Shown in pieces: positions 31,875 through 40,123 of a DNA stretch of 64,000 nucleotides. Source of the DNA: Leucoraja ocellata (lineage: Eukaryota); assembly GCA_036785375.1 (NCBI GenBank), contig JAWMAR010000269.1:744001-808000 (forward strand), read 5' to 3'. The position numbers and the translations under genes are program-made. Position 1 is the first letter of the stretch, and each line of letters opens with the position of its first letter. Below the pieces are notes generated by a model. That model searched no databases. It was not told where the DNA came from and was given only the letters and a program-made list of their open reading frames with translations.

Positions 31875-31981
31875 AAAAAAATATGGAACGCTTGACGAAT
31901 TTGCATGTCATCCTTGCGATGAGGCCATGCTAATCTTCTCTATCTTTCCAATTTTAGTATATGTGCTGCCGATGCAAGCAT
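31875..31981 (-). pseudogene. RNU6: Full-length U6 snRNA retrocopy fused to L1
   Basis: The reverse complement ATGCTTGCATCGGCAGCACATATACTAAAATTGGAAAGATAGAGAAGATTAGCATGGCCTCATCGCAAGGATGACATGCAAATTCGTCAAGCGTTCCATATTTTTTT matches vertebrate U6 end to end with scattered changes. The ACAGAGA box is damaged by a 2-nt deletion. Confidence 0.97.
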
Positions 31982-33127: not shown

Positions 33128-33225
33128 GGGCGGCATAGTGGCGCAGCGGTGGAGTTGTTGCCTTACAGCGCCAGACTCGGGTTCAATCCTGGCTATGGAT
33201 GCTGCCTGTACAGTGTTTTGTACAT
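33128..33225 (+). mobile_element. V-SINE/HE1-like SINE head only
   Basis: GGGCGGCATAGTGGCGCAGCGGTGG (A box)...GGGTTCAATCC (B box). Confidence 0.7.
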
Positions 33226-34667
33226 ATAGCATGGAAACAGGCCTTTTGACCCATGGATTTTACTTCGGAGTCACGTGAGTGACTTCGTGAAGAACCCCGC
33301 TTCCACGCATGCGTGCCATATCGCTACACGCATTGCAACGAGTCACACAGAGGGGAACGGCGTTCCCCAAGCGGGAGAATTTGAAAGTCGGGAACAGCAG
33401 GTAAGAGACTCTGCGTTCCTTTTTTCTACTTACCTTTTAGGTGGCTGCGGAAAGCTGGCGGGGGAGACCCGTGGAGTGCGAGCAGCCGGCAGCAGCAACG
33501 GCACGAGTTTCCCTGGAGGGGAACAACCTGTGCCCGACTTTGCTCCCGCACCGGCAAAATTCACTTCTCGGCCGGGCGGGAAGCAAAGCAAAGAGGTCCC
33601 GTATGCCAGTCTCAAGCGAGACTGGCTTGGAGCAGTCGCTAGCGGCCAGCGCGGAGGCAGCAGGACAGAGAGCAGGGACCAGCGCTGTAAGTACCTGGGG
33701 TACACAGCAGGGCTGGAAACGCTCAGCGAGTGCAGCGGCACTAATGGAGCTAGGAACTGGACGTCCGGGCCGAAAACCTTCTTCAAAAGGTAAGCACCGG
33801 GGTTGGTCCAAGGGGTCCCTAGGTACAGCCGGGTTTTACCGGCTGCGGAACTGCCGCGAAGGACCAGGGCCGTGAACTCCGGGGTCGGTCCGAGCGGCTC
33901 AAACCCAACACACAGGGAACGACGTGGGAGCACTCCGGAGCCGACACAGCCCCAAAGACCGACGCTACATGGGCCTGGGGCTGTGGAACAGGTAGGAGAA
34001 TTCCTTACCTTTCTTATTCTTTCCAGGAAGGCTGACGAGCTGCCGTTTCTACAGCAGCAGTCAGCCAGCAACGGAAGTCGGCACCACTGTCTCCCAGAAC
34101 GGGAGCGAGTGCCAACTTCACCCCATACGGGGTGAAGGGAAAAACAGAGCCAACAACCCACAAAACAGTGGGTTGTATTAGGGCTCTGGCACTTTTAAAA
34201 TTAACGGAGAAGGACCAGCCCCTTAAACACCGGGGTCGGTCCGAGCGGTTCAAACCCGACACGCAGGGAACAACGGAGAATGAAAAGTCGGGAACAGCAG
34301 GTAGGAGACTCTGCGTTTCCTTCCATTTACTTTTAGGTGCAGACATGGACTGGGTCCATGTAAGGTGCTGGCAGCGGCAGGAGCACTGGCAGTGGCAGGA
34401 GCAGCAGCGGCAGGAGCGGCAGCGGCAGGAGCGGCAGCGGCAGCCGGCAGCGGTAGGAGCAACATGGGCACATCGATTCCCGGAGGGGGAAAACATCTGT
34501 GCCCAACTTCGCTCCAGCACGGTGAGAAAATTCATTTCTCAGCAGCAGCAGTAACGGCCAGCGCCGAGGCCAAGGACTTTGCAGTGCAGTTGACTGGCTG
34601 CAATCTACCACAAGGGACCAGTAATGTGAGTACCAGGGTCGGTCCCAGCGGGGTTTTAGTTACAGTA

Positions 34668-34761
34668 ATCGCTTCTCGGCCTTTTGGCTAAGATCAAGTG
34701 TAGTATCTGTTCTTATCAGTTTAATATCTGATACGTCCCTTATCTAGGGACCATATATTAA
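34668..34761 (+). pseudogene. RNU2: U2 snRNA 5' fragment (nt 1-94)
   Basis: ATCGCTTCTCGGCCTTTTGGCTAAGATCAAGTGTAGTATCTGTTCTTATCAGTTTAATATCTGATACGTCC matches the conserved vertebrate U2 5' end. Stem IIb GTCCCT-TATCT-AGGGAC pairs. The copy stops before the Sm site. Confidence 0.97.
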
Positions 34762-34769
34762 TTAAAAAC

Positions 34770-34828
34770 TATAGTAGCTGTTATTATCAGTTTAATGTCT
34801 TATATGTTCCTTATCTAAGGACCATATA
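34770..34828 (+). pseudogene. RNU2: Second, diverged U2 fragment (nt ~32-90)
   Basis: TATAGTAGCTGTTATTATCAGTTTAATGTCTTATATGTTCCTTATCTAAGGACCATATA has 8 mismatches in 59 nt against the first copy. Confidence 0.9.
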
Positions 34829-35559
34829 AGTAAGAGTGCCCAGAATTGAGGGCATTAGAGTGGGGTTGACCGGCTGCAACGACCACAAGGGGCCAGTACT
34901 GTCAGTACGGGGGTCGGTCCCAGGGGTCTAAGATAAAGGAGCAGCCAGGAGCGCTGAGAGCGTTGAAGCCGGGTTAAGAAATAGATGGAATCAGATGTGC
35001 CAGTTATCCTCCACACCGGCCATATCCACTCCACGGAAGGAAGGACAAAGCTGGAGAAGGAGGACCGTGGAACAACGGGCAGCCAGCAGCAGCCAGCGGG
35101 ACTTGGATCACCCGTAGTGGGATCAGCTGTGCCCGATGTCGGCCCCGCACCGGCCAGATCCAGGCGGCCGAGCGGTAAGGCTAGACACAAATCAAGCAAG
35201 GTAGTGGACTCAGGGGGTCCGACTTTGCATAAAACCGCCGGCAACCAGCGCCCGAGAGGGCTGGAGCGGGAAGAAGCGGTGTATGGAGCCTTGCTCCAAC
35301 GTGATAAACCCACAGCAGTACCTCTTTGAGGGCTGCACAATGCTTCTACCCCATCAGAGGGGAGCACTGTGGGTCAGTTCTGGGTTGACTTGCAAGAGGG
35401 GTCCGCAGAACAAAAGACAAGTGGGCAGCAGTTAAGCCCCACATGGGTACCCCGTGTGGGACCCTAGAGATCTCTAACTCTAAAAAAGAGTAGGCAGGAC
35501 CCTGATGGGCCAGAGCCTGGTAATACAGCATCCCATGATCCTAACACAGCAGGGACTCT

Positions 35560-35960
35560 GCTGGACATGGTGGCTGATTACTTTAACCAAGTCAAACATG
35601 GGTAGACTTGGATCCAGGATGGCAATAGTATTACTATATGTCTGGCCACAAACGCCAACAAGGAAAATTTACAGACACTGGCCAGACATCTGCCACCTGG
35701 CAACGGTGAGGCATTACAGGTGCCCAGTGTAAACCAATGCATTTGGCAGCAGATGGGGACGAACATCAGGAACCAGGACCTCAAGATCCACAGAACCTTA
35801 AAGGGATTGACGGAAGGCATCATAGCATACACCCGCACCCTGGACTAAACGTAGGTAACCAAAAGACCATCAAGACGCACCAGCTCTGTTTAGTAATATG
35901 CAATATGACCTGAACTACACGTGGAAGGCGGCCATTCAGCCAGCACAGGGACCCCAAAAT
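35560..35960 (+). pseudogene. DIRS gag-like ORF relic
   Basis: RHLPPGNGEALQVPSVNQCIWQQMGTNIRNQDLKIH matches the P.N...L.VP.VN..IW......R..D pattern of DIRS ORF1. Frameshifted. Confidence 0.7.
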
Positions 35961-36279
35961 ATGCTACCATTTGCAAATAAAGAACCGTGTGTGGACAAAG
36001 CCAAGACACTGGGGCTCATCAAGGCCAGCGCAAGGGCCTATTTTGGAGTATGATACCAGCCACAGGCAAGGCCATAAAAAATGTGGCTCATACCAGTGGC
36101 AGTGCCAGAAATCAATATTACCCTGGAAGATGCGGAAGACTCAACCTCCCACATAACTCCGAACAAGAGATATCAAACCAGAACCTCCTTTTCAAAAAAC
36201 CAAGGAAATAACACAACCACCGGTAACCATGGAGGTAGGTGGGTGGGGTTTTTTCTTCTGTTAAAATAGGGACCTACGA

Positions 36280-36600
36280 TGGTAGGGGAGGTTGTAACAC
36301 TACAGTTATGTATGGTATATAATCGCTACAGATTCATATAATCTCAGCAGTATTCAGGGTTATCTGATAGGATTTACTCATCCCAATAACCACAGTACAA
36401 CATACACCAGAAGGGCATTTTGTCCTTACCTAAACCAAACAATTCTAAAACTAGCTTCGCATTGTTATGTAAACAAAGCCATAGGGTGATGTATTTCCCC
36501 CGTTCGGCCCCATCAATGGGGTACTAGGGAAAATTCAACTACACTCGGCATCTGGAATTCTCAGAGTACCCGACTGACCTTCAAAATCATGGTATTCGGT
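36280..36600 (+). pseudogene. DIRS pol relic: RT N-terminal start close to the MT-like C-terminus
   Basis: GRL*HYSYVWYIIATDSYNLSSIQGYLIGF (36286-36376), then ~110 nt later VFPPFGPINGVLGKIQ...GILRVPD*PSKSWY (36491-36595). The RT/RH core is absent. Confidence 0.75.
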
Positions 36601-36645
36601 CATACAGGGGATGGTGTTACAACCATGTTCCCTAATGAACAAGGG

Positions 36646-36687
<42 letters not shown>
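36646..36687. repeat. Poly(A) tract (~42 nt) inside the DIRS
   Basis: Directly visible. Confidence 0.95.
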
Positions 36688-36688
<1 letters not shown>

Positions 36689-36775
36689 ATGGATTTATCC
36701 AGTGACTGGAGGCAGTCATCCATGCCATAAGACTATGGATTTATTGATTTGTAGAGTCTAAAAGACCCACTACAC

Positions 36776-37635
36776 GGCTTTCGGCTGTCAGACAGGGCGA
36801 TGAATCTCATCTCATCTGCACTAAGACTGTCAACACGGAAGCAGTACCTTGGACACATCAAGAAATGGGGCATATACTGCTTGGACAACAACCTCGACCA
36901 AAGGCCAAGAACTTTCTGGCCGTATTGGAATTTTAACAAGCCTCCATTATGATAATCGATGGAGCTACAGTGCCATCAATAGTGCCACAAGTGCACTCTC
37001 CAATTACCTATCACAAGGAACGGAGCGGCACGAGGTGGGAACGCACCCCTGGTAAGAAAACCAGGTACTCCAAAATCTGGGACGTGGGTGTCGTTTTCTC
37101 AATATGCTGAGGAGCTTGTAGCTCATAACAGCGTTGTCACTTCAGTAACAGACCAGGAAGATGGTTATGCTCATGGTGTTATTTACCGCACAACAAGTCC
37201 AGCCATTAAGCAAACTGCGCCTGGACTCCCTGATCATCTCACCGAGAAACTGGTGTTGTCATACAGGATTTAATAAAAGAAAACAGATTGGTTTCCTTGG
37301 GTCAAGTGTTTGAATTTATGGTACACCCATATGGCAAACGACTGTGTATAGCAAGACACATCTAACAATACATAGAATATACTAAGAACATTCGAGGTCA
37401 GGAAATGGAGTTGTTTATCTCTCACAAGAAACCGCATGAAAGGGTTACGACTCAAACTATATTAAGGTGGCTCAAATAGGTCCTAAAAATGACACTAATG
37501 TTTTAACTCTCATTCCACCAGGGCTGCAGCAACATCCGCAGCAAAAATTGTACAGGTACCCACAGACCAAATCCTCAGAATGACAGGATGGTCATTCAAA
37601 AAGGGTTTTCCACAGGTTTTATAATAAACCAGTTA
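36776..37635 (+). pseudogene. DIRS tyrosine recombinase relic
   Basis: LSDRAMNLISSALRLSTRKQY..HIKKW; SYSAINSATSALS...VGTHP; IWDV; HSTRAAATSAAK (37511); ILRMTGWS; then, after a frameshift, VFHRFYNKP with the catalytic Tyr. Confidence 0.88.
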
Positions 37636-38203
37636 TTTTTGGAGCCATCATTTGTATTAAGAAAACATTTTATGTCCAACAAAATAATTGCCCGAAAGGT
37701 TACAGGGCTATGATTCTCAAATCTTAAAAAATGTTATATAATTTTTTCATTATACCACACAACTCTTTGTATAATTGTGTTTTAAAATTACTAATGATGC
37801 TCTCTCCCAATACCCAAGGCAGTTGTGAAGCATGGACTCGTTCCACGGCATGAGGTCACAGAGCTTTGAAATCTTCACGAAGTCACTCACGTGACTCCGA
37901 AGTAAAATAGTAAGATTAAACGAGAACTTACCAGTTTGAAGTTTGATCTGTATTTTATGAGGAGTTACGATGAGGGATTTCGTGCCCTCCGCTCCCACCC
38001 TCTTATGATCATATCAAAAACTGGTATCTCTTTGATAATCTTACTATGTTAGATCATTATAGGTTCCTGTGACCTCACACCGCTGCTTTGAAGAATGGCA
38101 CGCATGCGTGGAAGCGGGGTTCTTCACGAAATCCCTCATCGTAACTCCTCATAAAATACAGATCAAACTTCAAACTGGTAAGTTCTCGTTTAATCTTACT
38201 ATT

Positions 38204-38468
38204 ATGTGCCAAACAGTGATCTACAGACACTAGCACTATCCTACCCACTAGGGACAATTTACAATGTTTACTGAAGCCAATTAACCTGCAAACCTGTATG
38301 TCTTCGGGGTGTGGGGGGAAACCAGCCCACCCGGAGAAAACATACGTGGTCGTGGGGAAAATGCTCTACGTACAAACTCTACGTACAGACAGCTCTCGTG
38401 GTCAGGATTTAACCCGGGTCTCTGCCGCTGTAAGGCAGCAACTCTACTGCTGCGCCACCTTGCCGCCC
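38204..38468 (-). mobile_element. V-SINE/HE1-like SINE split by the DIRS (its tail lies at 33225-33256)
   Basis: CATGGAAACAGGCCTTTTGACCCATGG|ATT|ATGTGCCAAACAGTGATC..CACTAGCACTATCCTAC rejoins into one SINE; the head ends at TGCGCCACCTTGCCGCCC. Confidence 0.85.
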
Positions 38469-40123
38469 TTGGTGATGAAAGGTTAAACATTTTCCAAGAA
38501 TTGGCCCAAATTAATTTTCATGGTGTCCTTCAATCATTAATATCCTGAATGGACATTCTGCAAGTTTGATGAGAATGACATTCTTAAGTAAGCCCTATCA
38601 CCATGACTATTAGCAAACATTTCAAGCATCTGGAAATAAATGATATTCTTTATAAAACTGTTCGAGCACATGTTTCCATTATGGACTGCCTCTCCTCAAA
38701 GTTGACTGGTGCTGCATTCCACACGGCAGGTCATGCAGCTGTTTTGTGTATGGTGGCCTTTTAGCACATATATAAATGAGATACTTTATTGTGAAATACA
38801 GCTCTATTCAGTGTCCCTGTCATTGTTTATTCTGGTGTTGAAAGTACAATGTAATTTTTTAGTAAATAGCTTCCATATCCAGGGACCAGACCAGGAATAC
38901 TAATGATGCAGAAGGTTCACACCTCCTTAGCTGAAGACATGATTAAGGTTCAGTAATTGGTTTGGTATTCTTTTCTCTTCATTAAATTGCAATTTCTTTC
39001 AACTAGAGACACCGTAGCCACTTTAGCGGAAGCATTTTAGTGAGCCTTGAACTCTTACAATTAGGACAAGCCAGGGTAACAAGGAAAGCTTACTAAGGTT
39101 AGCCAAAATATACATCTGGAGAGCATGTCGTCATTTGCTTGCAGTGTAATGTCATATTTACTGTTGTTTCTCTTATTTACTACACAAACCCCTCCCTAAC
39201 CTCTTGCCCTATCTGCCAATTTTCCCACATCCTCCATTAACCTCTCCTACATCCTTTAGTGAATAATATCCTGTGCTTCACTATCTATCATGCTACTGAC
39301 TGTCTCAATAAAGACATCCATTAATCACCAGCCAAGGTTTATTCATAAACCTGATGTAAAATAATTGTAAAGGTTTTCTTCATAAATTTATTTACTATTA
39401 CGATATATCTGTTGGGAGAAAATATTATCAGCATCATATTCTTAATTATGTGTCGCAGATTGTTATGCTTTTTACAATATTTCAACACTCTTATAATTAT
39501 CTCGCTTGTAAATTTATCTGAATTTCTCTTTAAAGTACCACTGAAGCTTACAAATCAAGATTTATTTAGATTTGAAAGATGTCACTGAAATCTACTGTTC
39601 TCTCTCAAACTCACAGCTATCTGATTAAACACCATCTGTGACATTTAAACAGGCCAAGAGGTTGCATCAAAAGTTCAAAGGTAAAACAATAATCTTAAAA
39701 TTGGATCCTCCACCCAATATTAATCTGGACACAATTTATATATTCTCAGATCAGTCAGCCATGCAGACCCTTCTCAATAATAACTGTATATGCCATAGTG
39801 GGAAAACTATTCTCTAGAATAATCAAGCAAAATCCAAATCTCTCAAAAACCAAAGAACCAAATTTCTCCATTACCATTCTTGAATTTGTTTTGTCCAAAG
39901 TGGCATCATGGTTGTGTAGAGAGGAAAACTCCTTGGAGGTTTGGAACACTAAATTCAGATTCAATGAAGAAAATAGCACAAGGCCAAACAGAAGCAAATA
40001 CATGTCCCAAGGATTGCTATCTATTGCTCTCTATCAACTAACAAAAACATTATTGTTTAATGTTGATCACGCCAAAGCACTTCCAAGGATAACAGACACA
40101 TACACTGCTTGAGGAACTTTGAG

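Follow-up and report, generated by a model that had tools for sequence, protein, structure and literature searches.

The window analysed here is a stretch of 64,000 nt from Leucoraja ocellata (GCA_036785375.1, contig JAWMAR010000269.1, positions 744,001-808,000, forward strand). A non-autonomous DIRS1-type retrotransposon lies at 33257-38203, and it carries two pieces of U2 snRNA in its 5′ part. The features are listed by their positions in the window.

33257-38203, + strand: non-autonomous DIRS1-type retrotransposon of 4947 bp; homologous copies start and stop there with unrelated flanks, ATT is present at both ends and there is no target duplication
33257-33319, + strand: left inverted terminal repeat, complementary to 38095-38160 (88%) and 37872-37908 (37/37)
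33858-34275, + strand: internal duplications of the 5′ region of the element, units 351 nt apart (repeat families D1, D7 and D9)
34583-34667, + strand: repeat unit left of U2, a member of an array of ~105-nt units found also in a U2-less sister family
34668-34763, + strand: young (second) capture, U2 snRNA nt 1-96 in sense orientation, stopping 2 nt 5′ of the Sm site; 94/94 to the host, one change at nt 95
34764-34766, + strand: AAA added where the 3′ end of the second capture joins the old piece; with old nt 29-30 these make a five-A run
34767-34828, + strand: remnant of the old (first) capture, U2 nt 29-90, with seven derived changes in common with the single-U2 copies L116 and L203
34829-34926, + strand: right flank of U2, matching without a break the unfilled site seen in the sister family that has no U2 (L236 compared with L243)
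35390-36208, + strand: ORF1 relic, broken, in a gag-like position (tblastn with L063 ORF1, E 3.6e-47)
36079-36758, + strand: ORF2 relics; a deletion of ~1.05 kb near 36491-36494 took the RT catalytic motif and the RNase H region
36755-37637, + strand: tyrosine recombinase (YR) ORF, broken (tblastn with L063 ORF3, E 9.8e-48)
37872-37984, + strand: internal complementary region, a perfect (100%) complement of the two element ends; its halves share AAT (37906-37908), the circle junction
38095-38203, + strand: right inverted terminal repeat and right extension (repeat analysis, I1 and I3)

The element ends, inverted repeats and internal complementary region proposed by an earlier, sequence-only reading of this DNA agree with our repeat analysis, in which the halves of the internal complementary region are 37872-37908 and 37906-37984. 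ATT was found at the right end of all 34 listed copies and at the left end of 32, with unrelated flanks, and a target site duplication (TSD) was absent from all 34. L063, a relative whose ends are the same, has three long intact ORFs. Its ORF2 matches PF00078 (RVT_1, E 8.5e-18), the sole match in a general Pfam scan without a dedicated methyltransferase profile; its ORF3 matches PF00589 (Phage_integrase, E 4.6e-10), and its ORF1 has no Pfam match. DIRS1-like elements have inverted terminal repeats, a right extension, an internal complementary region and a 3-nt circle junction, and no TSD (PMC3266345, PMC7192593). The element in the window has inverted terminal repeats with a right extension, an internal complementary region, RT and tyrosine recombinase ORFs as relics, and no TSD. 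The likeness extends to the ORF1-RT-YR order and the use of a helper in trans (PMC3266345, PMC7192593). It differs from them in that all ORFs are broken, the RT core is deleted, the length is nevertheless 4.6-5.1 kb, and the cargo is derived from an snRNA. None of the ORF1, RT/RNase H and YR frames that define an autonomous element is intact in the window, and no frame longer than 375 aa was found in 73 further carriers of U2.

Carriers are mostly 4.6-5.1 kb long. Among copies L061-L120 and L151-L245, most non-autonomous copies fall in that range, compared with 5.05-5.15 kb for intact ones, despite the 1-kb ORF2 deletion; duplications of the 5′ region fill the size, and shorter copies of 253, 829, 3655 and about 4000 nt exist too. 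A size constraint on the element is possible. The same termini occur without a U2 piece in other decayed or non-autonomous lineages (L067, L069, L072, L078, L088, L098, L108, L109 and L118) and in several autonomous subfamilies (L063/L079 as against L073/L076/L095/L101). Within the ORF2 relic, a run of 41 A's at 36646-36686 is an unstable homopolymer in the subgroup of the window, close copies having 13-29 A's or no run of 12 or more. Splice-donor-like motifs (GTAAGAG/GTAGGAG), each followed by a pyrimidine run and AG within ~40 nt, occur at 33401-33440, 34301-34339 and about 33996-34026; they are too short for a usual vertebrate intron, and L243, the U2-less sister, has them too. On either side of the DIRS, at 33128-33232 and 38218-38469, lie oppositely oriented copies of a dispersed repeat that is probably a SINE; the window has five more. 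A diverged full-length U6 copy, likely a retrocopy, is located 1.3 kb left of the DIRS (31877-31981, − strand, RF00026, 83 bits).

In the window scan, the Rfam match to U2 at 34668-34773 scored 114 bits against a cut-off of 46. The U2 gene of the same genome was used as reference. At least 39 full-length U2 genes share the same top score, and all 30 that were fetched are identical. These true genes are clustered on contigs C251, C719, C770, C807 and C916, 8-150 kb apart, with identical coding sequence. In the host gene, ATTTTTG at nt 99-105 is the Sm motif. Comparison with the true U2 genes of the species, which the sequence-only reading had called for, gave identity over nt 1-94 (94/94). That reading had described the first piece as near-unmutated U2 nt 1-94; the identity holds, and the piece extends to nt 96 with a change at nt 95. 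The match to host U2 reaches nt 96 in most close copies. Among the 30 closest copies compared, the nt 95 change is restricted to the window and its near-twin L001, and nt 1-96 are intact with zero changes in 19. In the alignment to the host U2 genes, the window has no match to U2-gene sequence upstream of nt 1 or past nt 96.

The second piece, previously taken as nt ~32-90 with 8/59 mismatches, is a real U2 piece that begins at nt 29 (up to nt 31 if the A run is allowed for) and has 9 mismatches over its 62 nt. No 8-nt gap separates the two pieces: the nucleotides so interpreted are U2 nt 95-96, the three extra A's of the 3′ joint and old nt 29-31. The internal DIRS repeat reported on both sides of U2 is real. 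A 7/10 match between the flanks of U2 had been judged no clean TSD, and we agree, since the right flank differs in older copies, where it is the same as the unfilled site in the sister without U2.

The U2-bearing lineage counts about a thousand copies and has been spreading recently. A search of the source genome with U2 and its flanks returned at least 40 matches to the 701-nt region around U2 at 96-100% identity, and in the 30 that were fetched homology ends at or inside the left end of the element. Segmental duplication is ruled out as the source of the copies, because homology stops at the element ends. Exact patterns were counted in the genome: the 5′ junction of the window occurs 47 times, the left end 752 times, and the U2-DIRS 3′ junction 932 times plus 35 times in the ancestral state, and the 967 junction matches are a lower bound. 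They lie in elements with unique flanks, as expected for the mobile snRNA-bearing DIRS subfamily suggested beforehand. L001 is 99.97% identical to the window over 3344 nt at a different left flank, so the movement is recent.

Family copies were scored for zero, one or both U2 pieces in an unselected sample, the first 60 of the 752 left-end copies as listed, regardless of U2: 24 have none, 6 have one and 30 have both. RT sequence beyond aa 276 (YLDD is at aa 278) and all RNase H sequence are missing in 36/36 U2 carriers of this sample, and every copy in it with a full RT region is U2-less. No Rfam RNA cargo was found in the 18 scanned of the 24 U2-less copies. Sixty further copies picked by the 3′ junction comprised 48 double and 12 single forms. 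In total, 142 distinct carriers were compared. U2 begins at nt 1 in 133 of them, nt 1-24 are absent in 6, and U2 extends beyond nt 96 in none. The carriers lack the full length, Sm site and upstream gene flank of a functional U2 gene. Between U2 and the left end of the element lie about 0.5-1.4 kb; one copy, L061, has lost it entirely. Among the sequencing runs listed, no RNA run was a holder of the sequence; DNA or unlabelled runs of two organisms shared 0.36-0.60 of its words, a value that we do not take as evidence for the junction.

The site before the first capture is represented by a sister family that has the same ~105-nt repeat array and is U2-less in 30/30 loci. Its member L243 and the early carrier L236 are 94.8% identical over 271 nt from the base right after U2. 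Left of U2 lies a duplicate, ~430 nt long, of the element's own 5′ part, which L243 does not have; U2 thus borders on an internal duplication. L243 also spans the same 356 aa of ORF2 as the early carriers, so the loss of RT likely preceded the gain of U2. As in L1-type retropseudogenes, the U2 piece starts at nt 1 and is 3′-truncated. The TSD of at least 8 nt typical of them is missing, because the right flank is the unfilled site of the sister and the left flank is unrelated to it. An unfilled intermediate, with the left flank joined and no U2, gave 0 matches to three exact patterns, an absence that is weak given the exactness of the patterns. A second foreign-looking piece, at element positions ~1110-1190 in L243 and noted also in L121-L150, belongs to the U2-less sister family and the early carriers; it ends in CTATGTTT-like repeats, is replaced in later carriers and may resemble a LINE/SINE 3′ tail.

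The single-U2 copies form a ladder. The first capture was U2 nt 1-90, from exactly nt 1, and in L221 it is still perfect with respect to host U2. From this unchanged state the steps are C10T, then two T insertions, then G33A, C45A and G80A, followed by G31C, then T39G, then an extra base near nt 10 with G63T and C67T, and finally two changes in the right flank (L203, L156). In the double copies, the remnant has the derived right flank as well as all seven ladder substitutions of nt 29-90. The front piece of these copies has none of these seven changes, has neither the nt-10 change nor the extra base (both present in L114, L116, L156 and L203), and is 6 nt longer. It is therefore a fresh copy of host U2, which replaced at least old nt 10-28. 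The second capture thus placed U2 nt 1-96 and AAA ahead of old nt 29, and the old 5′ part was lost. Tandem duplication of the element's own U2 is excluded as the source of the front piece by the missing seven changes and the 6 extra nt. The front piece is nearly pristine because it is young and not, as had been supposed, through preservation. A third refresh need not be assumed for the subgroup of the window, as only 0.014 changes/site lie between it and the double-clade root.

A tree was built from the 3′ backbone of 57 copies, without U2 columns, after three sister copies in which the anchor was missing had been dropped. With starred support, it gives the order autonomous, L243, early single, late single and double. 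The natural copies and this independent tree establish the course of events: the RT core was lost, U2 nt 1-90 were gained and decayed stepwise, U2 nt 1-96 were gained, and both forms spread. They support the proposal of the sequence-only reading that U2 was captured more than once at one spot, here twice, and then carried along by a DIRS subfamily. Two observations count against a simple history. One single-U2 group (L068, L081, L104, L183 and L186) nests within the double clade on the 3′ backbone; both U2 and flanks belong to the older type in this group, which we read as a recombinant between subfamilies. Just 5′ of nt 1, the double form departs from the parent-like L203 at two bases, and the return joint is therefore not fully seamless.

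How U2 entered the element must be reconstructed from these joints. We consider it fairly probable that a non-autonomous DIRS1-type lineage took up the 5′ half of U2 twice, likely at the RNA stage and likely as passive cargo. The proteins would be supplied in trans by intact DIRS elements with the same ends; the DIRS-1 RT acts in trans (PMC7192593). In the first capture, RT would leave the DIRS RNA at the repeat unit, copy U2 from nt 90 all the way to the 5′ end and land on the duplicate of the element's 5′ region. In the second, RT would halt at old nt 29, enter U2 RNA at nt 96 by way of microhomology in the A run or of added A's, copy to the U2 5′ end and rejoin the DIRS RNA where it could pair with nt 1-28 of the old U2. 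Such a landing pad would account for a second capture that, out of some 5 kb of element, fell within the same 90 nt. The earlier idea of a capture guided by the older copy is thus possible for the 5′ (return) joint; the 3′ joint has only A-run microhomology.

The features of U2 that bear on this route are its sense orientation, the start at nt 1, the ends at nt 90 and 96, the lack of a TSD and the in-register replacement. The start at nt 1 without gene flank supports an RNA stage. The first U2 borders on an internal duplication, and no copy was found that has that left flank minus U2; both points support the DIRS route. The ends at nt 90 and 96, just 5′ of the Sm site, are expected if the template was Sm-bound U2 or its 5′ fragments, and U2 or its precursors are packaged by retroviral particles (PMC4752605). 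Together, these features suggest template switching onto cellular U2. The 3′ joints may equally have come from RNA ligation before copying, as described for the joint of U6/L1 chimeras (PMC6789731). Against the proposed route, the 3′ joint of the first capture has no microhomology, DNA-level routes would yield the same product in the second capture, and the capture steps are reconstructed and not observed.

Another machine may instead have put U2 into genomic DIRS copies, either a LINE acting on 3′-truncated U2 at a nick or break repair from a U2 gene, with the DIRS then a passive carrier. For the second capture, a LINE would prime on the A's at old nt 29-30 and the 5′ end would be joined by homology. 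L1-made 3′-truncated U2 retrocopies are known (PMC5322556, PMC4494074). The A's added at the 3′ end of the second capture fit such a route, the 5′ joint of that capture is homologous and hence silent on RNA or DNA template, and the diverged U6 copy lies only 1.3 kb away. Neither event has a TSD, however, whereas tailless retrocopies are defined by TSDs of 8-35 nt (PMC5322556). The first capture coincides with the edge of the internal duplication and its unfilled intermediate was not found, U2(77-96) followed by six A's has 0 matches in the assembly (a narrow test), and a DNA template leaves the two stops just before the Sm site unexplained. Keno and Utopia are retrotransposons that likewise adjoin U2 fragments, but they insert in U2 genes before nt 39, and here U2 lies inside the element (PMC4640811). 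The break at nt 28/29 is 10 nt from their 38/39 site, which speaks against this route as well and leaves the alternative origin through Keno or Utopia, named in the earlier reading, unsupported. LINE insertion or DNA break repair is possible, above all for the second capture; as an account of the locus it seems to us unlikely, at well under half the weight given to uptake by the DIRS.

Whether U2 is of use to the element was addressed through substitution rates. In 31 double copies, 19 changes fall in the 96 columns of the new U2 and 165 in the 767 columns of its flanks (p 0.42; 26/96 on a flank-only tree), and the remnant in these copies gave the same result. In 33 single copies, tested without nt 77-90, which were fixed by the search pattern, the old U2 has 32 changes in 76 columns against 171 in 299 cleanly homologous flank columns (p 0.12). 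Composition-matched rates of the old U2 and flanks are 0.277 and 0.303 at AT sites (p 0.87), and 0.565 and 0.632 at non-CpG GC sites. As U2 and its flanks change about equally fast, U2 resembles passive cargo. About 9 substitutions per 90 nt along a trunk of 0.082 changes/site are the neutral expectation. Passive cargo is likely the best fit to these rates, weak constraint being compatible with them, and the element probably has no function for U2. In wider flank windows the old U2 is slower (raw p 0.006-0.024; 0.05-0.10 without CpG sites), which counts against passive cargo, as do the position of both captures on the tree trunk and the majority held by the double form (30/36 and 48/60).

The other reading of these data is that U2 would aid spread, through recruitment of proteins by its 5′ domain, splice-site blocking, packaging or a shield against small-RNA silencing, and that a fresh capture restored the benefit after decay and swept. 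The lineage would then use the U2 5′ half as a working module and renew it from host U2 by homology-guided re-capture. The two captures on the trunk of a ladder-like tree would fit, as would the frequency of carriers (36/60 unselected copies), the nearly intact youngest group (19/30 closest copies unchanged in nt 1-96), several 5′ changes that are compatible with stem I by eye, the lower raw rates of the old U2 in some windows, and the recurrent splice-donor-like and pyrimidine-AG motifs of the 5′ region. On the other hand, the old U2 equals its flanks once composition is matched, and so does the new one. The branch-point pairing region mutated (G33A, also G31C and T39G) while the lineage still spread, 6/142 carriers lack nt 1-24, and the U2-less relatives with the same repeat array (30/30 loci) spread too. 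An extra capture on the trunk is weak evidence, as the trunk makes up 0.082 of a total tree length of 0.502. We regard both the benefit and the renewable module as improbable, more so than insertion by another machine. A one-off retropseudogene in one integrated DIRS copy has practically no chance of being correct, for it has no point in its favour, the at least 967 junction matches in unique-flank elements rule it out, and neither a U2 piece confined to this copy nor a TSD at an empty site was found.

Uptake by the DIRS, with U2 as likely passive cargo, was compared with known chimeras of small RNAs and retroelements. SINEU of crocodilians (Kojima 2015, PMC4494074) is likewise a mobile sequence derived from U1/U2, with recurrent snRNA additions ascribed to template switching. 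Its snRNA forms the 5′ head of a short element that has a poly(A) tail and depends on a Tx1 LINE, whereas the U2 described here lies within a YR element of 5 kb, with no 5′ head, no poly(A) and no LINE mobilisation, and part of the old piece gave way in register to the new one. U2 is without an internal promoter, and DIRS is not mentioned in the text of that paper (PMC4494074). The TRIMp3 elements Cassandra, Helenus and Ajax (Kojima 2024, PMC10886601) are similar as non-autonomous elements of the LTR/gag-pol kind with small-RNA-derived sequence. Theirs is 5S or tRNA in the LTR with a Pol III promoter; here U2 lies inside the element with no sign of constraint. Direct LTRs with tRNA/5S and a 4-5 bp TSD were not found in the window, where Rfam matched only U2 and U6, the ends are inverted and there is no TSD. 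A term search of PMC10886601 gave no hit for snRNA or DIRS. Tailless U2 retropseudogenes (PMC5322556) also start from nt 1 and are 3′-truncated, and U6/L1 chimeras (PMC6789731) join an snRNA 5′ of a retroelement fragment; both are single dead copies with TSDs, while here there is no TSD and the chimera was amplified about a thousandfold.

The sequence-only reading knew of no DIRS with U2 cargo, and the literature search bore this out: no report of a DIRS with snRNA cargo was found, subscription journals, Repbase, Dfam and supplements lying outside its scope. As far as the searched literature goes, this appears to be the first tyrosine-recombinase retrotransposon with snRNA cargo. Since the copy in the window scores 114 bits where the U2 cut-off is 46, annotation could mistake about a thousand scattered pieces for U2 genes, and U2 probes could pick them up. 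The joints testify indirectly to a DIRS RT that comes into contact with host U2, copies it and switches templates; the replication of DIRS elements is poorly understood, down to its primer (PMC7192593). The copies form an unusually complete record of the capture of a host RNA, from the unfilled sister through a perfect first capture and its decay to an in-register re-capture, and they indicate that a decayed capture can seed its own renewal.
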